Part shown: in pieces, positions 3,245 through 40,836 of the stretch
Position numbering within the stretch: the stretch's first letter is position 1
Layout: the number at the start of each line of letters is the position of its first letter
Translations under genes and position numbers: made by a program
Notes under the pieces: generated by a model
Told to the model about the DNA's origin: nothing
What the model saw: the letters and a program-made list of their open reading frames with translations, nothing else
Database searches by the model: none
NCBI GenBank assembly: GCA_964613955.1
Contig: CAZTJN010000001.1
Span: forward strand, 97,656 to 161,655
DNA length: 64,000 nucleotides
Direction: 5' to 3'
Source of the DNA: an uncultured archaeon
GTDB taxonomy: Archaea > Aenigmatarchaeota > Aenigmatarchaeia > QMZP01 > QMZT01

Positions 3245-5566
3245 TCAAACCCTTTCCACACCTATGTTCACCTTGCTCCCGATCATTCCCTTATTTTCTA
3301 TCACAACCCTGCTGTAACCCCTTCCAATGCTCAGGGTGTTGTTAATGTCTATGTCATCATCCTTTATTTCTATTCTGAACGGATACCTATTTCCCAATCC
3401 GTATGAAAAACTCGGGGAGAGCTTCGAAAGAAATTCACCCTTCTCTATCATATCCATGCGGTTGTTCACCTGCCTCCAGTTACCCTTGGAAAAAACAAGA
3501 AAAACCATGAAGTTCGTGAATCTCTGGTCTGTTTGCATTTCATATTCATCAGACGCTGCTGCAGCCGTTATCATCAATGGGCTCTCTGAAGAGAAAACAA
3601 GTGATACCAGAACATCATTCAAATATGAGGATAAATAATAGTGAGGTGGGTTCAGATCTGTGTAGGGACTTATGGAAGCGAGCTGGCTGTATGTTCTTTC
3701 TCCAAGGCCGGGTACATACATCATGGCGGAATTCCATGTACTGTTCAGCGAAAGCTTCACCTGAACATTAAGGGTGGCAACAGCTATCTTGGTCCAGTCA
3801 TAGCCCTTTCCATTTCCGACGTCAGTGGCTGTAACATTTATCAGCCACAAGCCCGATGCGTCCGAAGGAAGCGTGTAGTTGTATTCGTATAGATAGCCGT
3901 TGGTTATTTCCGAGATGTTTGCCATGTTGGCATTGCCCACCTTCGTTGCCCCGAGATTATCCTTTATAAGAACAGTTGCATTCGACAGGTAATCCCTGCC
4001 TGTGCTGCTCGTCACAGTCGCGCGTATCCTTACCATTCTTCCCGGTCTGAATATGCTCGTTTCAGCAAGTGCTCTTGTGTATGTTTTAACCTCGACAATA
4101 GGCAGTCCCATATCCTGCAAATGGATAACAACGAATCTGCTCTCTGTCAGGTTTTCATGCGTCTGGTTCGCCACATAGCCTGACTTGCTGACGTTAATTG
4201 TGTAATTGGTGAAAAAATTCTTCCCAGATGATGTCTGGTTGTATTCGTTCAGGACTTGTCTTGTTATATGGCCCGTGGAGTTCGTAAGACCGCTAAACTT
4301 CAAGGAATTGTACGAGTCCGTTATGTTGACATCCGCTCCCTGCACAGGATTTTCGGACATGTCCTTAACCTGTACCTGCAGGTACCATCTGACCCAGATA
4401 ACCGTGTTGCCGTTCACGGAAATATTATTCTTGTCGAACGTTGTGTTTATGAAGTAGTTGTTGGAAGAACTTGTGTCATCTGCGTAAACCTCATCGCCGG
4501 GTGAAGCGTTTATGAGCGTGTCTATGATGTAGTTGTTGGTGGTGTATGTCAAACGCATGCCTTCGTTGTCATTGGAGTGGATATTGCTCCTGCTTACATT
4601 ATTTCCCGAACCGTAGCTTATCATTATCCCGCGTACGTTCAAAGAGGCATCGATGTTTATAATGAGGTTGTTGGAAGAGGATTGCGAATAAATCCCGTTC
4701 CCGCCGTTATCAAGAAAAATGCAATTTTCAATTCTGTTTCCGTTTGAACTGGATTCGAGGTACACGCCGTTGTTCGTATTCAGGGAGCTGTTGACAGACG
4801 TTACGTTGTTGCTTGCTGACTGGTAGAACCAGATACCTGTGTTGCTGTTGGATACTACCTTACCGCCTTCTATCCTGTTGCCTGAGGATGACGCTGCATA
4901 AATACCTCTTGCCTTGTTGGATGTTGTATTAGTTTCGTATATCACGTTGTTATCAGAAGAATCGAGGTTGATGCCGTCCTGTGCGTTGAAGCTTACAACA
5001 GCATATTCAACTCTGTTGTTGTTCGCGGTCGAGAACCAAATTCCGTGGTTTGTGTTTTTCGAAACGTTTCCGTGGCTGAAGTTGTTGCTGGAGGAAGAAG
5101 CAAACACAACCCCGTAGTCTTCGTTAAAGAAAACAGTGTTGTTGGTCAGGTTGTTGTAAGTCGATCCGGAAACTATGTTTATTCCCCTGTCCGTGTTCGA
5201 GGTTATGAAATTGTTGTATATCCTGCTGCCGGCAGAAGAAGATATGTCTATACCATATGCCCAGTCGGATACCTCGCAGTTGCGAATCGTTACGTTGTCG
5301 TAGTTGGGGATCCTCACACCATAGGTATTTGCGTTGTCAACTCCGTCTATCCTGTTGCCTTGACAGTCCAGCGTAACATTATCAGCCTGGACGTACATGC
5401 AGGTTGAGTTCGTGGAGTTCCATATGCTCTGTGTCAGCAGATACGTTTCGCTTGGTGTGTCGAGGACAGTGCAGTTGTCTATGTTGAGAGACAAGACAGG
5501 CAACGCCTCTGACAAAAGGAAAATAAAAAATACAAGTCCTGCCAACAGCACGCCCTTACCCCACAT
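3245..5566 (-). CDS. Secreted right-handed parallel beta-helix (PbH1/NosD-like) repeat protein, 773 aa
   Basis: Signal peptide 'MWGKGVLLAGLVFFIFLLSEALPVLS'. Roughly 22-aa periodic repeats such as 'NVTIRNCEVSDWAYGIDISSSAGSRIYNNFITSNTDRGINIVSGS...NGIWFSTANNNRVEYAVVSFNAQDGINLDSS' are typical of PbH1 beta-helix proteins. C-terminal Ig/CARDB-like beta domains. Very many NxS/T sequons. Confidence 0.75.
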   Translation of the reverse strand: MWGKGVLLAGLVFFIFLLSEALPVLSLNIDNCTVLDTPSETYLLTQSIWNSTNSTCMYVQADNVTLDCQGNRIDGVDNANTYGVRIPNYDNVTIRNCEVSDWAYGIDISSSAGSRIYNNFITSNTDRGINIVSGSTYNNLTNNTVFFNEDYGVVFASSSSNNFSHGNVSKNTNHGIWFSTANNNRVEYAVVSFNAQDGINLDSSDNNVIYETNTTSNKARGIYAASSSGNRIEGGKVVSNSNTGIWFYQSASNNVTSVNSSLNTNNGVYLESSSNGNRIENCIFLDNGGNGIYSQSSSNNLIINIDASLNVRGIMISYGSGNNVSRSNIHSNDNEGMRLTYTTNNYIIDTLINASPGDEVYADDTSSSNNYFINTTFDKNNISVNGNTVIWVRWYLQVQVKDMSENPVQGADVNITDSYNSLKFSGLTNSTGHITRQVLNEYNQTSSGKNFFTNYTINVSKSGYVANQTHENLTESRFVVIHLQDMGLPIVEVKTYTRALAETSIFRPGRMVRIRATVTSSTGRDYLSNATVLIKDNLGATKVGNANMANISEITNGYLYEYNYTLPSDASGLWLINVTATDVGNGKGYDWTKIAVATLNVQVKLSLNSTWNSAMMYVPGLGERTYSQLASISPYTDLNPPHYYLSSYLNDVLVSLVFSSESPLMITAAAASDEYEMQTDQRFTNFMVFLVFSKGNWRQVNNRMDMIEKGEFLSKLSPSFSYGLGNRYPFRIEIKDDDIDINNTLSIGRGYSRVVIENKGMIGSKVNIGVERV

Positions 5567-5612
5567 ACTTTATAATTTGTACTAGATTAAATAATAGTTT
5601 GAATCTCCGAAA

Positions 5613-5631
5613 GGTTTTAAAATTTAAAACC
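5613..5631. promoter_or_regulatory. 19-bp perfect palindrome GGTTTTAAA-A-TTTAAAACC in a divergent intergenic region
   Basis: It lies between the divergent starts of the beta-helix gene (5566, minus) and ORF 5643 (plus), 12 bp upstream of the ATG at 5643. Candidate transcription-factor site. AT-rich, so chance is possible. Confidence 0.3.
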
Positions 5632-5642
5632 AAGGAATACGC

Positions 5643-6092
5643 ATGAAAGATCCGAGATTTTACATTCTCCCTTTAATTTCAGTAATCATCGTCGCAGTTT
5701 TTCTGGTGAACCCCGGCATAACGGGTCTTATCATAGGGACGGGAGGGAGCGCGGAAGAAAACCTGATGCAACTCAGCGGAAAAGTGAGTATAACCATCTC
5801 GAAAGACATAATCCCAGAGGATGCAGTGGTCACTGTTTTCTTCAGCGACCAGAGTTCAGCGATGCCCATAAAGGACTTCATAGAAAAATCAGGCAAGGAA
5901 TACGAGTTCAAATACGGGCGAATCTCTGAGATAGGATACGAAGGTTACGGCTACGGAAAGGGGACGTACACCCTTGACCTTTCGGATTTCGGTCTTAACC
6001 TCATGGTCGAACCGGGCAATTACACGCTGACAACAGAGATAAGTTATGAAAATTTCGTAATATCGAGCACATCGCAGGACGTTGTTGTCTGA
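5643..6092 (+). CDS. Small secreted/membrane-anchored protein (149 aa)
   Basis: N-terminal signal/anchor 'FYILPLISVIIVAVFLV', followed by Gly/Tyr-rich beta-like sequence. Confidence 0.45.
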   Translation: MKDPRFYILPLISVIIVAVFLVNPGITGLIIGTGGSAEENLMQLSGKVSITISKDIIPEDAVVTVFFSDQSSAMPIKDFIEKSGKEYEFKYGRISEIGYEGYGYGKGTYTLDLSDFGLNLMVEPGNYTLTTEISYENFVISSTSQDVVV

Positions 6093-6112
6093 AAATATCC
6101 GTCATTTATAAT

Positions 6113-7333
6113 TTATTTTCTCCTTCTGAAGTAGAAGAACCACCCCAAATTTATCATTATTAACACTATTACAAGCGGCGTTAATATGTCGTAGCCTCCG
6201 CCCTCTTCCCTTCTGATAGCCTTTGCTGTCACCCCAAGTATCTCCGTCTTTATGCTCTCCAGCTCTATGTACGTCTTGAGCTTCTTCTCCGTGGTTCTGC
6301 TCGCGTAATGCAGAACAAGGTTCGCATCGTATACGCCTTTTTCAACCCCTTCCGTGTCCCAGTATGCCAGTAACGTTTCCTTCTGAAGCGGTTCGATGTC
6401 GACAGAGGCGGATTTGACGTTTGCGACTGTGTTGCCCGCCGCATCCTTTATCACCATTTCAGCATAGACGTTTTCGATTTTCTTGTTCCACTTGCTCTCC
6501 ACGAGGATGTTGAACTTTGCCACTCCACCCAGCCTGAATCCCTTAACCGTGACTTCCTTCACATCCACGAAAAGGTTGCCCACGTAAAAATTCTTTTCTG
6601 CTCTTGCGATTTTGTTATCGTACCTGAGCGTAGCCACCGCATGATAGACCCCCGGGTTCACGTCCGCTTTCCAGTACGCCGCCAAGTCCTTTCTTTCCTT
6701 TGATTTGATGGGGATGTCCTCGGTCTCAACCGTATCAATAACCTCGTTCGTCGGACCCTTTATTTCGATGGATGCCTTTGCGTGCGCTATGTTCTGCGTC
6801 CCGAGATTGTAAACCTTAACGAAGAAGTTCACGGTTTCTCCAGGCTGGGCTTCGGCGATGGTCAGATCCATTTCTGCATACTTGCCTGGGTACGGGACCT
6901 TCACCAGAAGCTGGTGTATGACGGCAGTAGTGGCAATAACGAACTGCCCTTTTAATTCTTCCTGCCCTGTGATGCCTGGTGGGAGTTCCATCAAAACAAT
7001 CTTTGCCCAGTGGTCTCCAGGTTTGTCGATACTTTCAGGCAATTTGACCGTATATGTGAAGGGCTTGGAGTATTCCTCTTCACTGAACTCAACCAAGTTT
7101 TTTTCAATATTAACGTAATCCTTCAAGTCCCCCTCCACGTAAACTAGAGCATTGAATGCCTTGTGGTCGTTGTTAAGAATCTTGAAGGTAATTTTTTCAG
7201 AGAGGCCGGGCTCAAATTCAATTGTTTTCCTGCCCGGCGTAACTCCTATGGCACCCGCATTCACCGGAACTGTGAACAGGACCAGCAGGAATGCCAGCAC
7301 TGCGAACCCCCTAAGCCTGCTCCCCTTTGACAT
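6113..7333 (-). CDS. Cell-surface protein with signal peptide and C-terminal TM helix plus polybasic tail (paralog of 913-2103)
   Basis: 'MSKGSRLRGFAVLAFLLVLFTVPVNAG' signal. C-terminus '...DILTPLVIVLIMINLGWFFYFRRRK'. Shares the 'VPYPGKYAEMD' motif with ORF 913-2103. Confidence 0.6.
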   Translation of the reverse strand: MSKGSRLRGFAVLAFLLVLFTVPVNAGAIGVTPGRKTIEFEPGLSEKITFKILNNDHKAFNALVYVEGDLKDYVNIEKNLVEFSEEEYSKPFTYTVKLPESIDKPGDHWAKIVLMELPPGITGQEELKGQFVIATTAVIHQLLVKVPYPGKYAEMDLTIAEAQPGETVNFFVKVYNLGTQNIAHAKASIEIKGPTNEVIDTVETEDIPIKSKERKDLAAYWKADVNPGVYHAVATLRYDNKIARAEKNFYVGNLFVDVKEVTVKGFRLGGVAKFNILVESKWNKKIENVYAEMVIKDAAGNTVANVKSASVDIEPLQKETLLAYWDTEGVEKGVYDANLVLHYASRTTEKKLKTYIELESIKTEILGVTAKAIRREEGGGYDILTPLVIVLIMINLGWFFYFRRRK

Positions 7334-7796
7334 TCTCCCCTTCTCCTATTTTAACCGATGAGCCAACCCCGAGGACCATGGCCCCCGTGACCCTGCTGAG
7401 AACAACGTCCGTGTTCCCTTCGTTCCTGACTTCGTTCTTCTCCCTTGCAAGCACAACGCTCGAACCCAGAGTAAATTTGCGGACCCCGCTTTCGAACACC
7501 CCGCTCCTGACCTTCCAGTAGTACGTCCCGAAATCCAAGTTGTTGCTGAACCTGAAGGAGTTGTCCGAAACTTTAACAGCGAAAGGACTTGTGAAATCTT
7601 GGTCGTCATCCACCAGAAGTTCATATTGTTTGTAGGGACCGCCCCACACAAATTCAGGCGCTCTTTCCGTTATATACACCCCGTTTTCCGGTTCTATCAG
7701 CGGGATGGCCGTTACGCCCGCCAGAAGATAGATAACTAATCCGATGACTAACAAATTCGCCAGTATCAGGGCCTTCGAAATCTTAAGTTTCGCCAA
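7311..7796 (-). CDS. Membrane-anchored protein with Fn3-like extracellular domain (161 aa)
   Basis: N-terminal TM helix 'ALILANLLVIGLVIYLLAGV'. 'GTYYWKV' type motif. Overlaps the upstream gene by 14 bp, suggesting an operon. Confidence 0.45.
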   Translation of the reverse strand: MAKLKISKALILANLLVIGLVIYLLAGVTAIPLIEPENGVYITERAPEFVWGGPYKQYELLVDDDQDFTSPFAVKVSDNSFRFSNNLDFGTYYWKVRSGVFESGVRKFTLGSSVVLAREKNEVRNEGNTDVVLSRVTGAMVLGVGSSVKIGEGENVKGEQA

Positions 7797-9414
7797 TGTA
7801 CCACCCCGTGAATATGAGAGTAGATGATTTACCTCCTGGAGGTTCGTCCCAGGGAACCATTATCTGGATTTCGACTTCGGCGGAATCATTCGTGTCCGTG
7901 TAGTTCAGCGAGTTTATGAAGGTGTTGTTGACCAAAGGGACGTTTGTCCAGCTTGTTGTCGAGCCGGTCCAGTTGAATGCCCCCTCCTCTCCCGGCCACC
8001 AGTCAACAGAATAGTTGAAGTAGTCTGAAGGCACGGGAGCAGAAAGCCATAAAGAATTTTGGGCAGATATATTCACGTCTATTATGCAGTTCCCGTCATT
8101 GTGAAGGCCAAACGGATTCGGCGCGTTGTCCGAGGTGTCGTTCTCATATCCCAATGGCCTGTTTTCCCCGAAGTCAACCACGTCAGGTGAAATCGAAATC
8201 GAAACATTCGTGTCTATTGTGAAGTTCCATTTGTCACTTTCCGTTCCGTTTTCGTATCCGTCATACGCCTTAACGGACCAGTTGTAGTAGTAGTTATCAT
8301 CCCCGAAGTACCGGAGTTCTGTGGAAGGTGTGTAATTAAGATCAGGTGTGCTCGCATATCTGTTATCGCTTGAACAATCCCCTCCTCCCAGCTTAAGACA
8401 GGTTATGTTTACGAAATACGTCAGAGAATCGCCGTCCGCATCATTCGGCTTATTCCATTTCAACGTTGGCGTTTTGTTTGTGAAATGCGAACCGCTCGGC
8501 GGGGAGTCCAAAATAACTTTGTCAGGTTTCGCATTTTCACGGAACTGCCTTAGCGTTTCGTTGCCCCACACACCGTTGGAATCATTCGCATAAACCTTGA
8601 ACTGATACGTTGTTCCGTCCAGTGTTGTTTTTGTTTTGGTGCATATCACACTGTTGCCAGAGCCTATCTTGTTCATGGTTTCATTGCCTGCCGGGTTGTT
8701 TCCCTCTTTCCATTCGAGCAGACACGTATCGATGCTTGCCTGCGAATCAGAAATGACAGTTACATTTATCGTTACGCTGTTTGCGATCTGCCTTGTTCCG
8801 TCCCCGGGCGTTGGGCTTTCGTATGTGACGCTCACGTCATTTGCAACCCTGCAGCATATCTTCCTTTTGTACTCTTGGCACGGCCCGATATGCGCGTTTG
8901 TGTCGTTGTTTTCCGATGGATATGCGGAAGCCATGGATGCGAAACACTCCCTGTCACTCGGGCAGGCATTATCCACATAAGTGCAGTTGAAATAGCCAGG
9001 CGTGGCTTCCAGACAGACGTCAACTCCATAAACAACCCCAGGGCCCGAATAATCACCCCTTTGAACATGCGAATTGGTGGTCGCGTTCAATCGGAGGAAA
9101 ACGCCCTCGCAACCGTAGGAGAGGGTTGAGTTCGAATCGCAGCATATCGCATAAGGATAGTTGTTAACGGAAACATTCTGGGCATGCGCATTCCAGTAAC
9201 CTCCCGTGTCGTTCTTCACGTACAAGACAGGGGTGTATGAACAGCTGGTATTCACCGTAAAACTGCAATCTAAATCACCGGCGGCCGAAACAAGATACAC
9301 AAAAACCAGAGTAAGGAGAAAAATCATCTCGATTATCATTAAATTGCTTCCCCTGGAACTTTTCCTCAAGACGTTCCCCTCCCTATGAAAGAATAGAGTA
9401 TTACCCAGTATCAA
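7783..9414 (-). CDS. Secreted Cys-rich surface protein (about 518-543 aa; the likely true start is the internal Met at 9339)
   Basis: The internal Met gives a classic signal 'MIIEMIFLLTLVFVYLVSAAG'. Many Cys and NxS/T sequons. Fn3-like segment '...LKWNKPNDADGDSLTYF...YYYNWSVKAYDG'. Confidence 0.6.
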   Translation of the reverse strand: MILGNTLFFHREGNVLRKSSRGSNLMIIEMIFLLTLVFVYLVSAAGDLDCSFTVNTSCSYTPVLYVKNDTGGYWNAHAQNVSVNNYPYAICCDSNSTLSYGCEGVFLRLNATTNSHVQRGDYSGPGVVYGVDVCLEATPGYFNCTYVDNACPSDRECFASMASAYPSENNDTNAHIGPCQEYKRKICCRVANDVSVTYESPTPGDGTRQIANSVTINVTVISDSQASIDTCLLEWKEGNNPAGNETMNKIGSGNSVICTKTKTTLDGTTYQFKVYANDSNGVWGNETLRQFRENAKPDKVILDSPPSGSHFTNKTPTLKWNKPNDADGDSLTYFVNITCLKLGGGDCSSDNRYASTPDLNYTPSTELRYFGDDNYYYNWSVKAYDGYENGTESDKWNFTIDTNVSISISPDVVDFGENRPLGYENDTSDNAPNPFGLHNDGNCIIDVNISAQNSLWLSAPVPSDYFNYSVDWWPGEEGAFNWTGSTTSWTNVPLVNNTFINSLNYTDTNDSAEVEIQIMVPWDEPPGGKSSTLIFTGWYIGET

Positions 9415-9456
9415 TTATAATCTTGGTGGCTAAGAAATAAAAATCGACTGTGAAAT

Positions 9457-10047
9457 TCAAAGAGTGCATCCAGTCGTGCTCTCAATCCAGTCCAGTGATT
9501 TCAGGCCTGTGTATATTTTGTTGTCGTAAACGATGGATGGTACCTCTTTCACCCCCAGCTGTTCGCATGCCTGCAGGTTCGCTCCTGTGCAGTCCACGTA
9601 AACCTTGTTGGCATAGTTTCCTATTGCCAGCAACTGCTGCAGCGTATTGGGTTCGCTCTTTTGACCAAGAACGATGAACCCTTTTGAGCGCAGACATTCA
9701 GCGAACTTCTTCTCTTTCTCGAGCCTAGCGAGGGTTCCGGAAACCTCCATTATGTTCTCTGAGAGAAACCTTCCGTCTTTCGTTGCGTAGAGCTCCTTTA
9801 TAACATCCCCGTCTCTCAGTTTCAACCTTACCAAAAGCTTGTAGACATACCCCTCGTCCTTGACGTTGAGAACCTCCACATCACTTTCCGTTAACATTTT
9901 GTAAACATTTTCCACGCTGTCCACAACCTGTTTTTGTGACCCGAGCGTGATAGTGTTCTGCAGAAGCATAAATGCGAGTATGATGACCAGAACCAATATT
10001 ATCCCTATGTAGACCAAATCCTTTTTCACAATCTTCTTTGGGGCCAT
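9457..10047 (-). CDS. Membrane-anchored thioredoxin/glutaredoxin-fold-like protein (putative)
   Basis: N-terminal TM helix 'LVYIGIILVLVIILAFMLL'. C-terminal 'GVKEVPSIVYDNKIYTG' resembles the cis-Pro/GG region of glutaredoxin/thioredoxin folds, and cysteines lie in 'FAECL' and 'VYVDCTGANLQAC'. There is no canonical CxxC motif, hence the low confidence. Confidence 0.35.
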   Translation of the reverse strand: MAPKKIVKKDLVYIGIILVLVIILAFMLLQNTITLGSQKQVVDSVENVYKMLTESDVEVLNVKDEGYVYKLLVRLKLRDGDVIKELYATKDGRFLSENIMEVSGTLARLEKEKKFAECLRSKGFIVLGQKSEPNTLQQLLAIGNYANKVYVDCTGANLQACEQLGVKEVPSIVYDNKIYTGLKSLDWIESTTGCTL

Positions 10048-23281: not shown

Positions 23282-24844
23282 TTAATCCACGATTTTGTAG
23301 AGACGGGTACACCCTTTCTCTTCAACAAGTGCGAGCGTATGATTCTTTTTCAGCTGATCGAAAATCAGTCTCCCGTATCCGAAAAACGTGGTATCGCACA
23401 TAGTATGGTTTACGTACAGGTAGTATTTCCCTCCCTTGTTTCTGCATCCTGAAAAAGAGGAAGTTAGATGTTTATCAGGCAACAATATTTTCATAACCAT
23501 TTCTGGGGAAGACATGCAATAATTTGACTGGGAGCTCTCGAAAAGCAAACAATCGTTATCCTTCACATAACTTCCGAAATGGATTATATTATCAATAAGA
23601 CAGTCGTCTTTTTCGAAGACGAAAACGTTCGTGCTTGAATGAAACAGTAATAATATTAAAATCAATACCACGAAAACGCCTGTAGTTCTAACCATATGCG
23701 GTATCCTGAAGGGAAATCTATTCTCCACAGTTCGCTCAACCAAATCCTTTGCTTTGAAAATACCGTAGCCCATCAGGATCGCCAGTGCTGGCTGCAGTGT
23801 TAGCTGATATAACTGCGGGTTGGTGTAAAGTGTTGCCCAGTACAGACCGTAAAAAAGAAAAAAGAATGCCACCCACGAAAACAGGAATATGAGACTGCGT
23901 TCTTTTGATACAAAAAGAAGAGAAAACAAAAGAAAGGCATAGAGAATGGTGGGATAAACATAGGGTTTTGCCAAATTTGAAGAAAGATGATATTGAACGT
24001 TTGGTATTAAGTACCCCAAGGAAAATGTTACAGGCCGTTCCTCATAATGAGGGTCTCTTGCCGGACCATAGATATTATCACCTATAATGTAATAGTAGCT
24101 GACAGGTATCATGAAAATCAAGAATATAAGCAAAGGGATTTTCAATTTTTTAATCTGGAATTTCTTCCTGTTTAAAATGAAATCCATAATGAACAAAGGT
24201 ATGAATATGGAATTGTCTGTTCTTACGTGGAGAGAAAACACGAGGAGCAGTAGGAAGAGAAGGTAAAGACCCCTCTTTCCTGCCTTAATCGAAATGAAAT
24301 ACATGAGAAATGTTAGCATGATAAAAAAGACGGACGTTACCTCGCTTGCATTGAGTTTTGCAAGGATAACAGACATGGGAAAAAGAGAGTATATCAAGGA
24401 GGAAAACAAAGCCACATAGTCCCTCTTGAAAAGAATATATGCGAGAAGAAAAATCATCAAAATAGTTAGCGAGCTCAGGAGCAGGTTAAGATAGAGAATG
24501 ACATTGTAGTTTGAACCAAACAAAAAGAAACCCGCTGCCATCAGTAAAGAATACCCTTTGGGGTGCCAGAAATCCTCCACAATCTGGTTTTCCAGCATAT
24601 TTACAGATGTTTTCACATAACTCCAGCAAAGCCCGTTGGGCGAGCTACATCCTGGGGAAGTGAATCTCAAATACGAACCCAAAAGAAAAATTAAAATGAA
24701 TGCCACCCAGACATGTATTTTTATTTTTCTGAAAAAAGAGGCAATATTTCTTATGTTGGCCAAAATCAATACACAAATCAAAACAAAGTTAATAAGTAAT
24801 ATGTAAAGTAAACTGCCGGAAAGGAAAGACTGAAAATCAAACAT
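23282..24844 (-). CDS. GT-C fold membrane glycosyltransferase, PMT/ArnT-like (GT39/GT83 family), paralog group A
   Basis: 520 aa. N-terminal polytopic domain (10 or more TM helices) plus C-terminal soluble domain ending '...LYKIVD'. The TM2 region 'KIKIHVWVAFILIFLLGSYLRF' is shared with five other paralogs. Confidence 0.6.
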   Translation of the reverse strand: MFDFQSFLSGSLLYILLINFVLICVLILANIRNIASFFRKIKIHVWVAFILIFLLGSYLRFTSPGCSSPNGLCWSYVKTSVNMLENQIVEDFWHPKGYSLLMAAGFFLFGSNYNVILYLNLLLSSLTILMIFLLAYILFKRDYVALFSSLIYSLFPMSVILAKLNASEVTSVFFIMLTFLMYFISIKAGKRGLYLLFLLLLVFSLHVRTDNSIFIPLFIMDFILNRKKFQIKKLKIPLLIFLIFMIPVSYYYIIGDNIYGPARDPHYEERPVTFSLGYLIPNVQYHLSSNLAKPYVYPTILYAFLLFSLLFVSKERSLIFLFSWVAFFFLFYGLYWATLYTNPQLYQLTLQPALAILMGYGIFKAKDLVERTVENRFPFRIPHMVRTTGVFVVLILILLLFHSSTNVFVFEKDDCLIDNIIHFGSYVKDNDCLLFESSQSNYCMSSPEMVMKILLPDKHLTSSFSGCRNKGGKYYLYVNHTMCDTTFFGYGRLIFDQLKKNHTLALVEEKGCTRLYKIVD

Positions 24845-24884: not shown

Positions 24885-25313
24885 TTAATAGTCTATCCCT
24901 ATCTTATCGCTGACCTGGTTCATTTTGCTCTTATAGCATTCTCCCGAACAGCACCATTCAATCGAAAACACACGAATATCGACATCCCCTTCACAGGGAA
25001 TCAGTTTCAACACGCCTGTTTTCCCGCTTTTTAACGGTTCAGTCACACTGAAATCTGCCGGCAAAGTTATGTTGGTTTCGACCCCGAACGGGACAACTAT
25101 TTTTATACTCGTTATATCCTTCCGGTTCGGGTTATAGAAAGGGACTGACAAGTAACCATCGATACACTTTCCTTGACCATATTCTATTGAACAGGAGGGA
25201 TTATAAGAACTGAAATAATCTTCCCAGTATAATCTCACTAGTGACACCAAAAATACTGCTACCAATATGATAAAAAAAAGTTTTCTTAATTTGTTGTATT
25301 TCATCTCTTTCAT
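24885..25313 (-). CDS. Small membrane-anchored Cys-containing protein (142 aa)
   Basis: N-terminal TM helix 'LFFIILVAVFLVSLVRL', then an extracytoplasmic domain with 7 Cys. Confidence 0.4.
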   Translation of the reverse strand: MKEMKYNKLRKLFFIILVAVFLVSLVRLYWEDYFSSYNPSCSIEYGQGKCIDGYLSVPFYNPNRKDITSIKIVVPFGVETNITLPADFSVTEPLKSGKTGVLKLIPCEGDVDIRVFSIEWCCSGECYKSKMNQVSDKIGIDY

Positions 25314-25427
25314 ATTTTACTCTCCATATGTTTTATAATTTCGCAGAATTGATTTTATATAATCTGAATTTGAACGAATTACTTTCGATAACGTTTGGTT
25401 TAAATTCCGAATATTTTTCAGGCAGAT

Positions 25428-26022
25428 TTATTTCAAATTCTCTGAAAGTTTCGAGCTCGAACTTCTCGTGCATTTCTTCACACAGATATAAGAAAAGAGA
25501 CTCAATAACGCGAAAAATACAGATGTTGTGTTAGATTCAATACTATTTGAAAGTAATATGTGCAGACGAAACAGAGCAAGCAAAAGAGCAGAGTAAAGAC
25601 CTGTCTCCTCTTTTTCAAAAAGAAGGCAGGCAACAAGGAAGATTATGATAACAGAAACAGCACCAAAAAACATTCACAGAGTAAAACACACCAATACTTG
25701 ACCCGAAAATCAAAAAGATAACCGAGAGCAGGAATGGATAAGAAATAGATTTCTCAATGGCCAAGTGGATATCACCCTGCAGCATACCTCTTGCAGCTTT
25801 CCCGCAGCCGTACTAATCATGAACCGTGAAGAAAATGTTTGGGAACATCTCCATGAGAAGAAGGGACAGGGCAACGATTACGATAAGTATAACCCATGTA
25901 GATTTTCTTATTTTTGACAGCTGTTTTCCTATATCTTTAATGTTAAAAATAAACAAAACAATTAGTAATGAAAAACAAACCGATAGCAATAAGACGTAAA
26001 AATGCGAAAGCTACTCAAACAT
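25428..26022 (-). pseudogene. Decayed 5' remnant of a GT-C paralog (group A) with in-frame stops and internal deletions
   Basis: Minus-strand translation from the ATG at 26022 gives 'MFE*LSHFYVLLLSVCFSLLIVLFIFNIKDIGKQLSKIRKSTWVILIVIVALSLLLMEMFPNIFFTVHD*Y...YPFLLSVIFLIFG', continuing in ORF 25428-25673 as '...EETGLYSALLLALF...TTSVFFALLSLFSYI'. These align with intact paralogs, for example 39193: 'LNLKDIKNQFHKIDKKVWAFLLVIFLFGFSL...YPFLIMLSYSIFG...KREEIGLYSAILYAM...SVSVFFIALAVLAYL'. There are TAG stops at codons 4 and about 66, and roughly two-thirds of the gene is missing. Confidence 0.55.
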
Positions 26023-26063
26023 CCAATAAGTTTTTGGATTTGAATTTTAAAAAATGTTACCCT

Positions 26064-27413
26064 TTAGGATGTAATGAATCTCAGGGCATGGAATCCTCTT
26101 TTAATATCTCCAAACGATCTAATTTTTTTGAACTGATCTAAAATGTAACTACCCCTTAAATAATATCTTTTGTATACCTCTCTCTGAATTTTTATCAACT
26201 CATCTTGCGTAAACATGCAAATTTCTTTTGGTCCTTTTCTATACATTTCAGATCCCGGGTATATAATTATTGGATTAAACTGTACGTAGTCCGGTTTTAG
26301 CATTTTCATTAGCCTGAAACTTTTTTCTACAGAGTCCTTCGTTTCTCCCGGGGACCCTATAATTACGTATGATAAAATTCTTATACCTGCCTTTTTGGTT
26401 AACTCAAAAGCCTTTTTAGTTTCTTCAAGTTTCACCTGCTTTTTCATTTTGTCCAGTATCTTCTGGTCCCCGCTTTCGACACCATACGCTATTACTGAAC
26501 ATCCAGCAGTCTTCATTTTCTCCAGCAAAATTTTATCAACCATATCAACCCTTGTTGCACATATCCACTTGATGTCCATTTTTTCCCTTGTTATGAGATC
26601 ACATATCTTCATCGTTCTTTTCCGGTTCAATGTGAAGTTGTCATCATAAAAGACAATGTTCTTGGTTTTTTGCATATCCACAACTTCCCTCAACTCCTCG
26701 AAAACATTTTCAACGCTTCTTTCCCTGTAGGGGCCGTAGACCCTTCTGGAACAATACACACAATTGTATGGGCACCCTCTCGTGGTGAGAAACGTTGTCA
26801 TGGGTCTGTCTATCAGAATGTGACCGTAAATTTTTGTTTCCAAGAGTTCTCTGGACGGGAAACTTATAGAATCGAGGTTGTTTGTATAGCATGGCTTGTT
26901 TATGTGTGTCTTCTTGTTAAATTTTAAACACAAACCCATCGTGTTTTTCAGATTTCTTTCATTTCCAAAACTTTCAACCAAATTCCTGAAAACAATTTCC
27001 TGGTCCCCTCTTATGATAAAGTCCACATATCTGAGGGCGCGCTCTGGAAATGTGCTTGCAAACGGACCGCCAGCAGCCGTAACAGCATTCAGACCTATCG
27101 ATTTCATTTTTGCTGAAAATAGCCTTATCCAGTTTTCCAAGTCACCCATCACAAAATCGCAGTAGTTGTTTGGTATAATTCCGATAATATCAGGCTTGCT
27201 TTCATATATTTTTTTCAGACATTCTTCGATCCCCATCTCTTTTGCATAGCAGTCCATTATTTCGACATCGGCCAGACCTTTTAGTGATGAAGCGATGTAG
27301 GCCAAATTCAGGGGAGGTGTCACGAACAATGTCTTGTAACCATCCAGCCTGCCGAATCCGGGGTTTACCAAACAGACTTTAATTCTATCACCTTGTATAT
27401 CAAAACCGAACAT
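26064..27413 (-). CDS. B12-binding domain radical SAM protein (class B)
   Basis: 'IKVCLVNPGFGRL...LAYIASSLKGLADVEIMD...DIIGI', then 'TTRGCPYNCVYCSRR'. 449 aa. Confidence 0.85.
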   Translation of the reverse strand: MFGFDIQGDRIKVCLVNPGFGRLDGYKTLFVTPPLNLAYIASSLKGLADVEIMDCYAKEMGIEECLKKIYESKPDIIGIIPNNYCDFVMGDLENWIRLFSAKMKSIGLNAVTAAGGPFASTFPERALRYVDFIIRGDQEIVFRNLVESFGNERNLKNTMGLCLKFNKKTHINKPCYTNNLDSISFPSRELLETKIYGHILIDRPMTTFLTTRGCPYNCVYCSRRVYGPYRERSVENVFEELREVVDMQKTKNIVFYDDNFTLNRKRTMKICDLITREKMDIKWICATRVDMVDKILLEKMKTAGCSVIAYGVESGDQKILDKMKKQVKLEETKKAFELTKKAGIRILSYVIIGSPGETKDSVEKSFRLMKMLKPDYVQFNPIIIYPGSEMYRKGPKEICMFTQDELIKIQREVYKRYYLRGSYILDQFKKIRSFGDIKRGFHALRFITS

Positions 27414-27460: not shown

Positions 27461-27474
27461 TTTATAAAATATTT
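27461..27474 (+). promoter_or_regulatory. TATA-box-like element (TTTATAAAATATTT) for the GT2 gene at 27489
   Basis: Centred about 25 bp upstream of the ATG, in the 75-bp divergent spacer between the B12-rSAM (minus) and GT2 (plus) genes. Consistent with an archaeal promoter and a leaderless or short-leader mRNA. Confidence 0.3.
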
Positions 27475-27488
27475 GGAAAATTATAAAC

Positions 27489-28187
27489 ATGATAACCCCG
27501 CAGATTTCTTTTGTTCTCCCCGTGTTTAATGAGGAAATGAACATCACGGGTGCTGTTGAGGATATTGTATCAGCGTCAGCTTCCTTGGGTCTGGGAAGAT
27601 ATGAAATAATCATTGTCAATGACGGCAGCACGGACAGCACAAAAAGGATTTTGAATTCTTTGCGCAAAAAAATAAAGATGCTGAGAATCATAAATTTTGA
27701 AAAAAACAGGGGCTATGCAGACGCCCTGAAAGAGGGATTCAAAGCTGCTAAGTACCTGCTTGTCTTTTACACTGATGCAGACAGGCAGTGCGACATAAAG
27801 GAACTGGGCTCCCTTCTCGACGCTATGGAGAAATACAAATGCGATTGCATTTTCGGTTACAGAAAAGAAAGGAAAGATTCATTATACAGAATTCTGGCTA
27901 CATGGGTGTTCAACGTACTTGCAAGAAAAATGTTCGATCTAGATTTAAGGGACATAAATTGTCCGTTCAAACTTTTCAAAAAAAGAGTGCTCGATAATAT
28001 TCAAATAAAATCAAAGGGGTTTTTGGTAGATCTGGAATTGGCCACGAAGGTAAAGCACTGCGGATTCATTATAAAACAAGTTCCGGTGACACACCGCAAG
28101 AGATATTCCGGGAAATCAAAGGTCAAGTTCAGAACTATATTTAAAACATTCTTTGGTTTATTAAAATTGAGAAAATATGAAATTTAG
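27489..28187 (+). CDS. GT2 glycosyltransferase, polyprenyl-phosphate sugar synthase-like (Dpm1/ArnC-like, soluble)
   Basis: 'ISFVLPVFNEEMNI...EIIIVNDGSTDSTKRIL...FYTDADRQCD' are the GT-A DxD motifs. 232 aa. Confidence 0.85.
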   Translation: MITPQISFVLPVFNEEMNITGAVEDIVSASASLGLGRYEIIIVNDGSTDSTKRILNSLRKKIKMLRIINFEKNRGYADALKEGFKAAKYLLVFYTDADRQCDIKELGSLLDAMEKYKCDCIFGYRKERKDSLYRILATWVFNVLARKMFDLDLRDINCPFKLFKKRVLDNIQIKSKGFLVDLELATKVKHCGFIIKQVPVTHRKRYSGKSKVKFRTIFKTFFGLLKLRKYEI

Positions 28188-29917: not shown

Positions 29918-30859
29918 ATGAAAGCGCTGGTAACAGGAGGAGCGGGCTTCATAGGTTCTCATTTGGTTGACGAACTAATCAGACATGGTCGTACGGTCAG
30001 GGTTTTGGACAACCTAAGCGCGGGCAAAGAAGAATTCATCGAACACCACTTCAACAACCCGAATTTCGAATTCTTAAAAACAGACCTGCTGAAGGATGAT
30101 ATTGATAAATATTTTAAAGGAGTAAAGAGGGTTTTCCATCTGGCAGCGAACCCTGAGGTGAGGATCGGAGCTGAAAACACAAGTATCGATCTGGAGCAAA
30201 ATGTCTTGGTCACTCACAAAGTACTGGAGGCCATGAGGAAGGAAAGGGTAAAATCAATTGTTTTCACTTCCTCATCAACTGTTTACGGCGAAGCAGACAT
30301 ACCAACACCCGAAAATTACACCCCGCTCAGGCCGATATCTTTGTACGGCGCTTCAAAACTGGCGTGCGAATCCATGATCTCCGCGTATTGCCACACCTTT
30401 GGCATGAATGCAGTTGTCCTCAGGCTGGCCAATGTAATAGGGAAGAGGAGCACCCACGGCGTTACCCGAAACTTTGTGGATAGTTTAAAAAAGAATCCGA
30501 ATGAACTTAAAATCCTCGGCAACGGCCTGCAGAACAAATCATACATCTACATAACAGATTTTATAAAGGTAATGTTGCTTGCTGTTGACAACTCTGAAAA
30601 ACCCTTTGATGTTTTCAACATAGGTTCCGAAGACCAGGTGGATGTTAGGAGAATTGCCGAAATAGTTTCGCAGGAAATGGGTTTGAATCCGAAATTCGCA
30701 TTTGCCGGCGGAAATAGGGGATGGAAAGGCGATATACCCGTTATGCTCTTGGACATTTCAAAGATAAAAAAACTGGGATGGAAACCCGAATACAGCTCAG
30801 AGGAGGCAGTGAGAAAGACGGCAGGGGATTTGCTCGAAGGGCCCAAAGCTCAGAACTAG
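29918..30859 (+). CDS. NAD-dependent nucleotide-sugar epimerase/dehydratase (GalE/SDR family)
   Basis: 'MKALVTGGAGFIGSHLVDELI' is the Rossmann GxxGxxG motif. 'YGASKLACE' is the catalytic YxxxK. 313 aa. Confidence 0.85.
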   Translation: MKALVTGGAGFIGSHLVDELIRHGRTVRVLDNLSAGKEEFIEHHFNNPNFEFLKTDLLKDDIDKYFKGVKRVFHLAANPEVRIGAENTSIDLEQNVLVTHKVLEAMRKERVKSIVFTSSSTVYGEADIPTPENYTPLRPISLYGASKLACESMISAYCHTFGMNAVVLRLANVIGKRSTHGVTRNFVDSLKKNPNELKILGNGLQNKSYIYITDFIKVMLLAVDNSEKPFDVFNIGSEDQVDVRRIAEIVSQEMGLNPKFAFAGGNRGWKGDIPVMLLDISKIKKLGWKPEYSSEEAVRKTAGDLLEGPKAQN

Positions 30860-30867
30860 ATAAGTTT

Positions 30868-31971
30868 ATGGTTTTTATGATAGTGAAAAACACTCTCCAG
30901 TTCCTTGACATACTGATTTCAAGATCGCTGGGATTCAGACCTAAAGGACCTTTATTTCTTTACCTGGAGATCACGAGAAAATGTAACCTTAGGTGTGAAT
31001 TCTGCAACCTCTGGATGGTGGAGAAGAAAAACCCAGAGCTCATGGGAAAGGAGATGAACACGGATGAGATATTTAACATTGTAAAGGATGCCAAAGATAT
31101 GGGCGTAGAGATTGTGGATATAGACGGGGGGGAACCTCTCCTGAGGGAGGATGTGTACAAAATCATAAAAGAGGTAAACAGGCATGGTATGAAGGCAGTT
31201 CTGGCCACCAACGGCACGCTGATAACAGAGACAGTGACGAAAAAATTACTGAATTCGGGTGTATCTTCTGTTCTGGTTTCCCTGGATGCGCCCGTACCGG
31301 AAAAACATGACAAGATAAGAGGAGTAAAAGGCTCTTTCAAGAAGGCTGTTGCGGGTATAAAAATCCTGAGAAAAATCGGCAAGGACGGGATAAAGATAGG
31401 CATAAATTCGCTGATCACAAGAGAAAATCTCGAACTTGTAAAAATGGCGAAGTTCGCTGGCTCACTCGGTGTTGACGGGATAAGGTTTCTCCCATACCAT
31501 CTGATTTACCCCCACAATTTATATTCTTTGCAAAATGAAAAATTGTTCATAAAAGACGATTCCGAGATTAACAAACTTGAAGAGGAAATAGAAAATCTAA
31601 TTAATTTTATTCCGAAGACAGGCCTGTACACAAATTCAATCCCTTTCTTAAGAGGCATTCCCGATTACTTCAGGGGGAACAGCGTTGTGGAAAAATGCTA
31701 TGCAGGCTATCTTTTCTGCGACATAAACTGTTACGGTGATTTGATGCCGTGCCTGATAAAACATAAAACCCTGAACATCCGAAACTCCTCATTCAAAGAG
31801 GCCTGGAACTCTGGGGAATTCGACAAGATGAGAAGGGAAATATCAAAAACCAGATGCGAAAACTGCTGGCACTCATGCTACATAGAACCAAACATAAGGA
31901 TGTCGCCTCTTTATCTTTTGAAGAACTGGAGAAATGTTTACCAAGAGATAAGATCCTATCTGAACGTTTAG
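30868..31971 (+). CDS. Radical SAM protein with SPASM/twitch-like C-terminal domain
   Basis: Start placed at the ATG at 30868 (the longer ORF from 30721 would overlap the epimerase). 'EITRKCNLRCEFCNLW'. C-terminal 'CYAGYLFCDINCYGDLMPC...CENCWHSC'. Confidence 0.8.
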   Translation: MVFMIVKNTLQFLDILISRSLGFRPKGPLFLYLEITRKCNLRCEFCNLWMVEKKNPELMGKEMNTDEIFNIVKDAKDMGVEIVDIDGGEPLLREDVYKIIKEVNRHGMKAVLATNGTLITETVTKKLLNSGVSSVLVSLDAPVPEKHDKIRGVKGSFKKAVAGIKILRKIGKDGIKIGINSLITRENLELVKMAKFAGSLGVDGIRFLPYHLIYPHNLYSLQNEKLFIKDDSEINKLEEEIENLINFIPKTGLYTNSIPFLRGIPDYFRGNSVVEKCYAGYLFCDINCYGDLMPCLIKHKTLNIRNSSFKEAWNSGEFDKMRREISKTRCENCWHSCYIEPNIRMSPLYLLKNWRNVYQEIRSYLNV

Positions 31972-36603: not shown

Positions 36604-38238
36604 ATGAGAAATATCTATGCTGAAAAGGCAATATCACAAATCCCAAGACTGTTAAGTCTAGAGGACAGAAACCCTTTGTCCAAAACATACGGGTGTTTTG
36701 ATAGAACATACTGGCTTGACAAAGCCATAGATTTTCCTTCTGCAATATATCAGTTTGCTGTTCACAGTCTGGCTCTGGTTTACACCCATAAATTCCCTAA
36801 AAATATTTACTTCAAAAATGAAAAAATTAAAAATTGGTGCCTTGCTGGTATAGATTTTTGGACCAAAATCCAGAAAAATGATGGATCGTACGATGAATTT
36901 TATCCGAATGAAAGGGGGTGGGCAGGACCCACGGGTTTTCTTTTGTATGCAATGATGGAATCCTACAAATTACTAAAAAGTGAATTCCCAAAGGACTTGA
37001 GGGAAAAATTTTTCAGAGCAGCCAAAAAATCTGCAAAATATTTAATTAAATATGATGAACACGGGATACTCGCAAACCATCATGCAGTAGCCATGCTTGC
37101 TGTATATTCTGCTTACGATATTTTGAAAGAGGACTGGATACTAGAAGGTTACACTAAAAAATTTGAATTTTTCAAAAAATTAAACTATCCAGAAGGTTGG
37201 TCACTGGAATACGATGGAGTTGATATGGGTTATCTCTCCGCCACGGTTAGCTTTTTGGGAAAAATTTACAAAATGAATCCAGATCCGGCAATATTAAACT
37301 TGGCCAAGAAATCTATAGATTTTACCAGCTATTTCGTATACCCGAATAAATTTTATGCTGGAACAATTGGAAGCAGACAAACATCTCATTTTTATCCACA
37401 TGGGTACGAGATATTTAGCAGGCAGATTCCTCTGGCTGGTAAAATCGCTGATAAAATGCTAGAGGGTTTGGAGGAGGGGAGATTAGTTCCTCCAGAGATT
37501 ATGCCTGATAGATACTTAGCTTACAGAGTCCCAGAGTTTTTACTGGCTTATTTAGATTACAAACCTCGGAAGAGCAAAATAACTGATTTACCACACGAAA
37601 GGAAGCCGTTCCAAAAATATTTTACTCAAGCGGGTATCTTTATTAAGAGGGACAAGGATTATTATATGATTGTAAATTTAAATAAAGGAGGTATCATAAA
37701 AGTTTTCGATGTAAGATCAAAAAAACTGGTTCATAATGACTGCGGAATTTTGGGCAGGTTAAAGGGAAGGAAACTTGTGACTTCCCAGTGGGTAGACAAG
37801 GATTATAAAAAAGAAGTAAAAGAAGACAAGGTTATCATTTCTGGTCACCTTCACCAAGTCCCTGAAAAAATGCCCACTCCATTTAAAATGATTCTTTTTA
37901 GGACAGCACTTTTGAGTCTGGGTAGAAATACCAGAATGGCCTATAAGCTGAAGGGTATTATTAGGAAAATGATGATAACCAAGAGCAAAAGGGTTCCCAT
38001 TAAATTTGAAAGAAAGATAAGTTTCAAAGACAAAATAAGTGTGGAGGATAAGATCATAATTCTGAAAAATGATAAATTCGAATCTCTGATGATCGGAGAT
38101 GAATTTTCCGTAAGATATGTCCCACAATCTTTATACTTTCAAAATCAAGAACTTGATGTTAAAGGATTTAATGTCCATAATGATTACTTGAATAATTTGA
38201 ACAAGAAACGAGAAATAATTTTAAACAGAAAGATTTAG
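36604..38238 (+). CDS. Hypothetical soluble protein, possibly alpha/alpha-toroid polysaccharide lyase-like (heparinase II/III / alginate-lyase-like)
   Basis: 544 aa with no signal peptide. 'GWAGPTGFLLYAMMESYKLL' and 'ANHHAVAMLAVYSAY' resemble conserved helices of heparinase II/III-like proteins. Weak, sequence-only similarity. Overlaps the upstream GT2 stop. Confidence 0.3.
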   Translation: MRNIYAEKAISQIPRLLSLEDRNPLSKTYGCFDRTYWLDKAIDFPSAIYQFAVHSLALVYTHKFPKNIYFKNEKIKNWCLAGIDFWTKIQKNDGSYDEFYPNERGWAGPTGFLLYAMMESYKLLKSEFPKDLREKFFRAAKKSAKYLIKYDEHGILANHHAVAMLAVYSAYDILKEDWILEGYTKKFEFFKKLNYPEGWSLEYDGVDMGYLSATVSFLGKIYKMNPDPAILNLAKKSIDFTSYFVYPNKFYAGTIGSRQTSHFYPHGYEIFSRQIPLAGKIADKMLEGLEEGRLVPPEIMPDRYLAYRVPEFLLAYLDYKPRKSKITDLPHERKPFQKYFTQAGIFIKRDKDYYMIVNLNKGGIIKVFDVRSKKLVHNDCGILGRLKGRKLVTSQWVDKDYKKEVKEDKVIISGHLHQVPEKMPTPFKMILFRTALLSLGRNTRMAYKLKGIIRKMMITKSKRVPIKFERKISFKDKISVEDKIIILKNDKFESLMIGDEFSVRYVPQSLYFQNQELDVKGFNVHNDYLNNLNKKREIILNRKI

Positions 38239-39192: not shown

Positions 39193-40836
39193 TTAGACAA
39201 TCTCCAGCGTTGCGTTATAAACCTCTATAGACCCTTCTCTGAAAAGAAATTTTAGATTGAAAGTATTCTCTATGTACGCATAATCTCCACTGTATACATC
39301 TTCAAGATTTTCGTCCCTTAGAAATACTATACAGGCATCTTTGCCTATTTTGTCTATATCAAAATATTCTTCGAAACGGTAAATTTGAATTGAAATTCTG
39401 TGATTATTTTTTATCACATCGCTTCTTGCTGTGAATAAAAGAGGTGATATGATTGTACAGTTGTCCGGTGTTCTTTTTAGAGCTGCAACGAATTCTTCAA
39501 GACCTAAGAATCTAGAATCCTTGAATAGGGTGGTGGGCATATGCAAACCCGAAGTTACAAATACCATAATCAAAATTGCCAGTATGAAAAGGTTTTTATC
39601 AACCCTCAGGGATTTTCTTATCTTGAACAAAGCAAATGATGCAAGAATTACATAAGGTAGTTGAAATTGCAGACTGTTTCTTAAGTAGGCAGAACAAAGT
39701 TCCATATCAAATTCACAGTAGTAAATGAAAGAAAAAAGAAGAAAATAAACTAAAAACCAAGCAATGATAAACAATTTCTCCTTTCTGAAATCAGATTTTA
39801 TTAACAGGATGATACCAATTAAAAATAATATAGTGACAACAGGATTGTACAATATTGCATTCATTTCAATAATTTCAGGAGGATATTGGTTGAAGAGCAC
39901 AGCACCATTTTTCAAAATACCGGAAGGTATGTAAGAAACGAAATATCTAATTTCATTCCCCCAAAAGGGTTCTATTTCCCTAAGACCAATTGGCTTGTAA
40001 ATGATCAGAGACTGAACAAATAGCTGCAGTAATACGAATATAACGATTATGGAAAACAACTTTCCAAGTGAAGTATAGATATTTTTTATTTTTTTATCTT
40101 TGAAGAAATTAAAGATAAAGAGACCAAGGATGAATACTATCAACATAATAAGGTTTTCCTGTCTAATATAGACTGAATACGAGAAGAGTATAACAAATAG
40201 TATCCAACTTTTGAGTTTATTTGTTTTTAGGGAAATGAGGTAGGCAAGAACAGCAAGGGCGATGAAAAAAACCGACACAGACCTCGCATTGGGTATACTT
40301 GCATGAAATATACTGAGCGGAACCATTGCGTACAATATAGCCGAATAAAGACCAATTTCCTCTCTTTTTGTCAGAAGATAAGATATCAGAAATACCAAAA
40401 TTATTGTAAGACTGCTGCACAAATCTGATATATAATTTGCGTACAAGGTATTAAATCCAAAAATCGAATACGACAACATTATAAGGAACGGGTATCCAGG
40501 AGGAGCGTTCGTTGGTTCATAATCGAAACATTCTTCATAACTGCCAAAATTACAATGGCTGTACATGCGTCCCGTTTTTTGTAACCATAGAGCATATTCT
40601 TCAAATGGGTAACCACCATGATAATAAGCTACGTAACTGGAATGAAAGCTTTCACTCCTTAAAGAAAAACCAAATAAAAAAATCACCAGAAGAAAGGCCC
40701 ATACTTTTTTATCAATTTTATGAAATTGATTTTTGATGTCTTTTAAGTTCAAAAATAAGAATATGATAAGAATGAGAAAATGTATCGATAATATGGGAAT
40801 CAAGTATGGTTCCAAAAAATGGTAAATTTGTTCCAT
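39193..40836 (-). CDS. GT-C fold membrane glycosyltransferase, PMT/ArnT-like, paralog group A
   Basis: 547 aa. 'HKIDKKVWAFLLVIFLFGFSLR', 'KREEIGLYSAILYAMVPLSIF', and C-terminal 'GSIEVYNATLEIV'. Confidence 0.6.
   Translation of the reverse strand: MEQIYHFLEPYLIPILSIHFLILIIFLFLNLKDIKNQFHKIDKKVWAFLLVIFLFGFSLRSESFHSSYVAYYHGGYPFEEYALWLQKTGRMYSHCNFGSYEECFDYEPTNAPPGYPFLIMLSYSIFGFNTLYANYISDLCSSLTIILVFLISYLLTKREEIGLYSAILYAMVPLSIFHASIPNARSVSVFFIALAVLAYLISLKTNKLKSWILFVILFSYSVYIRQENLIMLIVFILGLFIFNFFKDKKIKNIYTSLGKLFSIIVIFVLLQLFVQSLIIYKPIGLREIEPFWGNEIRYFVSYIPSGILKNGAVLFNQYPPEIIEMNAILYNPVVTILFLIGIILLIKSDFRKEKLFIIAWFLVYFLLFSFIYYCEFDMELCSAYLRNSLQFQLPYVILASFALFKIRKSLRVDKNLFILAILIMVFVTSGLHMPTTLFKDSRFLGLEEFVAALKRTPDNCTIISPLLFTARSDVIKNNHRISIQIYRFEEYFDIDKIGKDACIVFLRDENLEDVYSGDYAYIENTFNLKFLFREGSIEVYNATLEIV

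Follow-up and report, generated by a model that had tools for sequence, protein, structure and literature searches.

This study concerns a stretch of 64,000 nucleotides (nt) from a contig of an uncultured archaeon (hereafter the window), in which positions 25333-26022 of the minus strand very probably represent a unitary pseudogene of a PMT_2/GT-C glycosyltransferase, lying in an archaeal surface-glycan island, in a slot that varies between strains. The ancestral gene encoded a GT-C-type glycosyltransferase of the PMT_2 family, a multi-pass membrane protein of about 551 amino acids (aa), and four independent lesions, namely two nonsense codons, a 2-nt loss in a run of T and a deletion of about 964 nt, inactivate it. 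The original prediction had described a decayed GT-C gene directly downstream of an intact B12-binding radical SAM (B12-rSAM) gene. This description is borne out by an intact 551-aa gene at the same position in two related loci (L003 and L007) and by the recurrence of the same lesions in four assemblies.

The glycosyltransferase relic and its intact counterpart

With every protein of the window as tblastn query, significant matches within 25200-26200 came from GT-C proteins only. The summed E values for the relic region were 4e-16 for open reading frame (ORF) 56857-58539, 6e-15 for 53720-55450, 3e-9 for 39193-40836 and 4e-9 for 23282-24844. The predicted homology between the minus strand below the ATG at 26022 and the GT-C paralogs of the window is thereby confirmed, and the proposed check, a tblastn of intact paralogs such as 39193-40836 over the relic region, was significant. 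As for the residue-level alignment that had been claimed, the similarity stands but the single frame does not, the two quoted stretches lying in different frames on account of a frameshift in a T6 run (25670-25665). The far C-terminal end of the intact proteins has its match in a third segment, CEEMHEKFELETFREFE, which continues to the TAA at 25335-25333, the ancestral stop codon of a gene starting at ATG 26022. The relic had been thought to end after roughly 200 codons, at 25428; instead there is an internal deletion of about 964 nt, and the last 49 codons are kept up to this TAA.

When the stop codons and the frameshift are repaired, the relic scores 25.0 bits against PMT_2 (PF13231; ArnT / protein O-mannosyltransferase-like GT-C), with an E value of 2.4e-5 over profile positions 3-88 of 160. 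This is just below the Pfam gathering score of 26.1 bits that was used as the threshold for membership, because half of the domain is deleted. The ORF at 25428-25673 (minus) is the frame-shifted middle piece of the relic and by itself matches PMT_2 at E 1.3e-4, and the ORF at 25328-25534 (plus) is antisense to the relic and has no family match; both had rightly been regarded as pieces of the relic region. An Rfam scan of 25100-26200 gave no match, and a protein search with the repaired relic against a collection of 5.8 billion proteins returned nothing at E<=1e-5.

Related loci were fetched with the protein of the upstream B12-rSAM gene as query. Among them, L003 (a 105-kb contig of an uncultured archaeon metagenome-assembled genome, MAG) and its twin L007 match the window in gene order on both sides of the relic, and the intact gene found there answers the check by the orthologous locus in relatives that the original prediction had also put forward. 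Their order, in the same orientation as in the window, is GT-C561, GT2, rSAM446, the intact GT-C551, a 141-aa gene, GT-C520, a SPASM radical SAM gene and a B12-rSAM gene. Both come from deep marine sediment of the gulfs of the Kathiawar peninsula (PMC8319310).

The gap between the rSAM gene and the 141-aa gene is filled in L003 by the 551-aa ORF (7374-9029), whose protein scores 47.7 bits against PMT_2 over residues 92-251, passing the gathering score, and also touches PF02366 PMT. In its length of about 550 aa and its N-terminal series of hydrophobic segments, the ortholog is a typical PMT_2-family protein. In tblastn, its residues 9-119 match the relic at 55% identity (E 1e-37), residues 120-180 at 56% (E 2e-20) and residues 502-550 at 71% (E 1e-18). 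Its start and stop codons align with ATG 26022 and TAA 25335-25333, respectively. Overall the identity is about 59% over 229 codons, and this protein is the nearest relative of the relic. The relic is therefore the positional ortholog of the L003 gene, as the slot, the neighbours and the positions of start and stop are the same. Hence the term paralog, used in the original prediction, is appropriate for membership of the GT-C family but not for a recent duplicate. The subfamily of the relic is very rare: a search with the L003 ortholog in the 5.8-billion-protein collection found 5 proteins at E<=1e-10 among 8000 candidates scored, none of them closer to the relic than L003 itself. As no recently diverged intact allele was found, the loss cannot be dated further. 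No solved structure homologous to the L003 ortholog was detectable by sequence.

The lesions can be read against L003 and against L004, another relative (Table 1). The ATGs of both orthologs align with 26022, and the two TAG codons noticed originally, at codon 4 (26013-26011) and after FFTVHD (25815-25813), are indeed present. The TAG at codon 70 is reachable from GAG by a single G-to-T change and stands where a conserved H-D-E motif of the first loop has its Glu; L003 and L004 both have H-D-E here, the closest window paralog, 56857, has G-D-E, and the other window paralogs lack D-E. In PMTs, an acidic D-E catalytic motif is located in the first extracytoplasmic loop after the first transmembrane segment, and the H-D-E motif may, judging from its position, be equivalent to this loop-1 acidic motif of PMT-type enzymes. 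The relic resembles PMT_2 proteins in that it keeps the first half of the domain and what may be the loop-1 D-E position, but differs from them in being, in all likelihood, non-functional. The supposed lack of about 40 aa of loop 1 turned out not to be a lesion. In a multiple alignment, the intact orthologs L003 and L004 and the paralogs 56857 and 23282 share the short loop 1 of the relic, and an insertion of about 16 aa in this loop is specific to the paralogs 53720 and 39193.

At the frameshift, the run GTTTTTTGG has lost 2 nt relative to L003, where the codon for Leu120 is cut to a single T, and this is equivalent to a gain of 1 nt relative to paralog 56857. At the large deletion, L003 positions 7916-8880 are without counterpart in the relic in the DNA alignment, and the blastn match to L003 breaks at window positions 25510/25477. 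Lost with the 321 codons (about 181-501) are the latter half of the PMT_2 domain and the greater part of the membrane and C-terminal domain. A repeat search around the relic found neither direct repeats nor insertion sequence (IS) element ends at the flanks of the deletion. A possible 4-nt microhomology (TTAT) at the corresponding positions of L003 is not informative.

PMT_2-family enzymes take a sugar from a polyprenyl- or dolichyl-phosphate carrier and attach it to a protein or glycan at the outer face of the membrane. Family membership suggests that the ancestral gene served such a lipid-linked sugar transfer, with donor and acceptor chemistry that would probably have been of the same kind. 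From what remains of the sequence, no glycosyltransferase is expected to be made. For annotation, this means that one pseudogene feature at 25333-26022 should replace the three short ORF calls in 25328-25989, and that one GT-C transferase should be counted as missing from this strain.

Table 1. Coordinates of the relic, its lesions and the adjoining features (positions are those of the window; L003, L004 and L013 are related loci)
Feature	Position	Strand	Remarks
Whole pseudogene (very probable)	25333-26022	minus	What remains of a gene for a 551-aa PMT_2/GT-C protein; 690 of about 1656 nt survive
Lesion 1: in-frame TAG at codon 4	26011-26013	minus	Codon is AAT in L003 and GGA in L004
Lesion 2: in-frame TAG at codon 70	25813-25815	minus	GAT TAG in the relic; GAC GAA in L003, GAC GAG in L004
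Lesion 3: frameshift in T6 run	25665-25670	minus	tblastn frame change between 25669 and 25664; 2-nt gap in DNA alignment
Lesion 4: deletion junction, about 964 nt lost	25482-25488	minus	Codons about 181-501 gone (L003 alignment)
Retained 3' end	25333-25485	minus	Last 49 codons or so plus TAA, in the frame of the start codon; 71% identical to L003 residues 502-550
Spacer from rSAM stop to ancestral GT-C start	26023-26063	minus	41 nt; from DNA alignments with L003 and L004
Class-B (B12-binding) radical SAM gene	26064-27413	minus	Intact, 449 aa; immediately upstream of the relic, same orientation
Variable slot relative to L013	25205-26020	minus	Flanks conserved; 0.8 kb here, 7.7 kb in L013, 1.7 kb (intact gene) in L003
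142-aa gene	24885-25313	minus	Downstream of the relic; N-terminal hydrophobic segment, Cys-containing domain

Copies of the relic, rival explanations and divergence

Looking up exact matches to the rSAM and the 142-aa protein led to further contigs that carry the relic, from four samples and two archives: L001 (ENA ERZ27248458), L002 (ENA ERZ27248407), L010 (JGI 3300021471) and L011 (JGI 3300021503). The relic is identical in all of them, over its whole length in L001, L002 and L010 and over the part present in L011. The single mismatch of L010, at 25330, lies outside the relic, in the 19-nt spacer after the stop codon. L002 represents a distinguishable strain, with 18 single-nucleotide polymorphisms (SNPs) and one 2-nt indel in 6.8 kb but none in the relic. 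Almost all of these SNPs, together with the indel, fall in three tight patches (27465-27496, 24605-24646 and 23889-23917), of which one is located in the divergent intergenic region between the rSAM gene and a GT2 gene and two are inside the 520-aa GT-C gene. The patches look like short recombination tracts rather than scattered mutation.

These copies bear directly on the question of whether the gene is intact in the organism and merely appears broken through sequencing or assembly. Although one of the lesions lies in a homopolymer and metagenome assemblies can collapse sequence, all four independent lesions would need to be false, and false in the same way in three further assemblies that hold the whole relic and a fourth that holds part of it, one of them from a distinguishable strain; such an error is untenable given the identical relic in four further assemblies, and we rejected it as extremely unlikely. 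Equally hard to credit is a functional, recoded gene in which TAG is read through (e.g., as pyrrolysine) and the frameshift is programmed. It could appeal to the fact that both in-frame stops are TAG, and that the losses of 2 and 964 nt sum to a multiple of three, which returns the retained tail to the frame of the start codon. However, TAG is an ordinary stop in the window, where it ends 13 of 46 ORFs (28%), and recoding through TAG was rejected on this usage. Moreover, recoding would not bring back the 321 deleted codons, and only about half of the PMT_2 profile would be represented in the product. The lesion in the T run is a 2-nt loss relative to the ortholog; no recoding signal was seen there, and none was looked for. 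We attach no meaning to the restored frame of the tail, as two stops lie upstream and restoration has a chance expectation of one in three.

The origin of the relic as a decayed recent tandem duplicate of one of the GT-C genes of the window (the 'group A' paralogs) would account for its residue-level similarity to ORFs 39193 and 53720, but was rejected on identity levels and synteny and has very little to commend it. The relic is 25-49% identical to the window paralogs in the aligned segments, as against 55-71% to the syntenic L003 ortholog. The GT-C genes of the window are themselves only 22-35% identical to one another and to the L003 protein, and the intact ortholog in L003 lies at the same position between the same neighbours. 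The relic is therefore not a decayed recent copy of another GT-C gene of the window. A somewhat less improbable alternative, still a clearly unlikely one, is that the remnant has been re-used, either through short ORFs (25813-25989, 58 aa; 25428-25673, 81 aa; 25333-25473, 46 aa) that serve as small membrane peptides or through a 3' end that carries expression signals of the 142-aa gene. Of the pieces, the 3' remnant is conserved best (71% to L003), and it ends 19 nt before the next gene, the same spacing as in L003, and L002, a strain that differs elsewhere, has no SNP in the relic. But the copies of the relic are all near-identical, so that conservation is not assessable, and the absence of SNPs from 0.7 kb in L002 carries little weight, since they are clustered in a few patches. 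The pieces of the relic have no family or RNA match beyond PMT_2. A decayed GT-C gene in the organism itself is thus the reading that we retain.

The substitution pattern was compared with that of the neighbouring genes, and several of the results weigh against simple decay. Between the window and L003, neighbouring orthologous pairs are 68-75% identical, with 68% and 75% for the pair of intact GT-C genes that flank the relic, and in the same comparison the three pieces of the relic are at 53%, 64% and 69%. The first 118 codons of the relic show 53% amino acid identity to L003, whereas the same stretch of the intact neighbour GT-C genes shows 67% and 79%, and third-position differences are also raised in these codons (0.67 versus 0.42-0.48 in the neighbour GT-C genes). 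This raised third-position divergence fits a mosaic origin, or a different history of the segment, better than simple decay. Furthermore, a Tajima relative-rate test with L004 as outgroup found no significant excess of replacements specific to the relic (28 versus 17, chi2 2.7), and no relic-specific excess was found with three window paralogs as outgroups. Finally, the short ORFs of 58, 81 and 46 aa survive in the relic and might conceivably be expressed as peptides. As the relative-rate test shows no significant excess, the case for neutral decay rests on the lesions and not on the substitution pattern. Measured against the divergence of the L003 lineage the loss is probably recent, unless the test is low in power.

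The upstream radical SAM gene and the variable slot

The B12-rSAM gene upstream of the relic is, as originally stated, intact: its product is full length, with matches to PF04055 Radical_SAM (101.7 bits) and, N-terminally, to PF02310 B12-binding (47.4 bits), and it is collinear with its counterpart in a further related locus, L013, at 87% identity over residues 1-449 (70% to L003). The ratio of nonsynonymous to synonymous substitution rates (dN/dS) against L013 is 0.14, indicating that the gene is under purifying selection. The adjacency of an rSAM gene and a GT-C gene, with a spacer of about 41 nt, is kept in L003 and L013; the spacer is conserved in the relatives and is near-identical to that of L004 up to the ATG. 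However, L012 (324-4472) has a 548-aa GT-C gene of this subfamily, its product 43% identical to the L003 551-aa protein, that lies divergently beside a GT2 and GT-C563 pair with no B12-rSAM gene in between. With no rSAM gene between this GT-C gene and the GT2 gene, and with the rSAM gene of the window lacking a working GT-C gene, the pairing is frequent but not obligatory. The earlier view of a module that has lost its glycosyltransferase half is therefore correct as to the loss of the GT-C gene but not as to an obligate pairing. The intact rSAM may now work with another partner or alone. That an rSAM and the adjacent GT-C are not strictly co-dependent matters for inferring the function of such pairs.

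Comparison with L013 (matched by L014 from NCBI and by L015 from JGI, and overlapping with L004 and L005) revealed that the relic occupies a slot of variable content between conserved flanks (Table 1). In bins of 100 nt, DNA identity to L013 is 75-95% in the left flank and 94-100% in the right flank. The break at about 26016, where identity drops to about 50%, coincides exactly with the GT-C start codon; the other break lies within the 142-aa gene, where 94-98% is reached at about 25205. The first 36 codons or so of the 142-aa gene are accordingly diverged from L013 (a variable segment) and the rest is about 98% identical, so that the gene appears, on this sequence comparison, to be a recombination mosaic. 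Synonymous divergence (dS) from L013 is likewise unequal, amounting to 0.48 in the rSAM flank and to 0.13 in the opposite one, which again indicates a mosaic. The L013 counterpart of the 520-aa GT-C protein is 95% identical to that of the window over the first 183 residues.

In L013 the slot (1821-9517, 7.7 kb) holds a 551-aa GT-C gene, a gene for a DUF2079 membrane protein, a B12-rSAM gene, a SPASM radical SAM gene, a 552-aa GT-C gene and the 5' part of a 140-aa gene. Both GT-C proteins belong to the subfamily of the relic and are about 36-44% identical to it. The relic haplotype (L010) and the long haplotype (L015) come from one JGI sample. The conserved flanks, the sharp breaks in identity and the different content in relatives identify the slot as a site of cassette turnover. 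The suggestion of ongoing gain and loss finds support in these slot data from L013, L014 and L015. Within the window there is one loss only: the relic is the sole loss remnant, and a tblastn of all window proteins against the intergenic gaps of the window revealed no other relics, the only extra match being a DUF483 paralog at the window end. On a side note, the 9.3-kb contig of L004/L014 (CAYPPH010000010.1) is filed under a 'Candidatus Saccharibacteria' MAG; it shows 83-98% DNA identity to parts of the island and is probably mis-binned.

As to mechanism, recombination in the conserved flanks would exchange cassettes, and the window strain shows the loss state. We lean slightly towards a model in which flank recombination swaps GT-C/radical SAM gene sets between co-occurring lineages and decay offers an alternative route to a changed surface glycan, making this an archaeal counterpart of O-antigen and capsule diversification that is possibly virus-driven. 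The loss of the relic gene may have altered the surface glycan, and a diversifying pressure, for example from viruses, may drive the turnover. The slot offers a breakpoint-resolved case of GT-C/radical SAM cassette turnover, from an archaeon of sediment that is uncultured and whose alternative haplotypes occur in one sample, and is of modest wider interest.

The glycan island and its likeness to known systems

Beginning at about 18 kb, the window is occupied by a large island of glycan-biosynthesis genes. It contains 5 B12-rSAM genes and several SPASM or other radical SAM genes, 9 genes for PMT_2-type (GT-C) membrane glycosyltransferases of 520-588 aa, and also small GT2 genes, sugar epimerases, an aminotransferase and a carbamoyltransferase. 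The relic is found in a minus-strand row that comprises the upstream B12-rSAM gene, a gap of 750 nt, the 142-aa gene, the 520-aa GT-C gene (23282-24844), a SPASM radical SAM gene and a B12-rSAM gene. The 142-aa protein carries an N-I-T sequon and matched no Pfam family. L003 and L013 both have its gene immediately behind the slot, with 141 and 140 aa, respectively. Gene families such as DUF483 indicate an archaeal host. No tRNA gene was found in the window.

Bacterial O-antigen and capsule loci have conserved flanks, variable centres, pseudogenes and cassette replacement. The present locus resembles them in its conserved flanks, its sharp breakpoints and a centre that is unrelated in co-occurring relatives, as well as in having one glycosyltransferase inactivated by point lesions and a deletion. 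It differs from them in its archaeal host and in consisting of GT-C and radical SAM genes rather than genes of the Wzx/Wzy type, and no IS element or repeat is present at the lesion. The relic is an ordinary pseudogene, a new example of a familiar phenomenon.

A likeness to Gtr-type extracytoplasmic glycan-modification systems, in which a small GT2 polyprenyl-phosphate glycosyltransferase acts with a flippase and a GT-C transferase (PMC11127046), is one of gene content only: small GT2 genes (232-258 aa) adjoin GT-C genes in the window (27489/28198 and 33893/32238). Unlike these systems, the window has yielded no identified GtrA-type flippase, and the archaeal island adds B12-rSAM and SPASM radical SAM genes, which are absent from the bacterial systems.

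Some minor features of the window were noted as well. Two island ORFs, 36604-38238 (plus, 544 aa) and 48336-49142 (minus, 268 aa), have no credible Pfam match, and the 544-aa protein has no BLAST similarity to any GT-C gene of the window. A second DUF483-like gene (63650-64000, plus) runs off the end of the window and is 40% identical to ORF 60318-61187 (plus) over 101 residues. The longest ORF of a SPASM radical SAM gene (30721-31971, plus) overlaps an epimerase gene (29918-30859) by 139 nt; its true start is probably downstream of 30721, since the L003 counterpart has 400 aa compared with 416 aa for this ORF.

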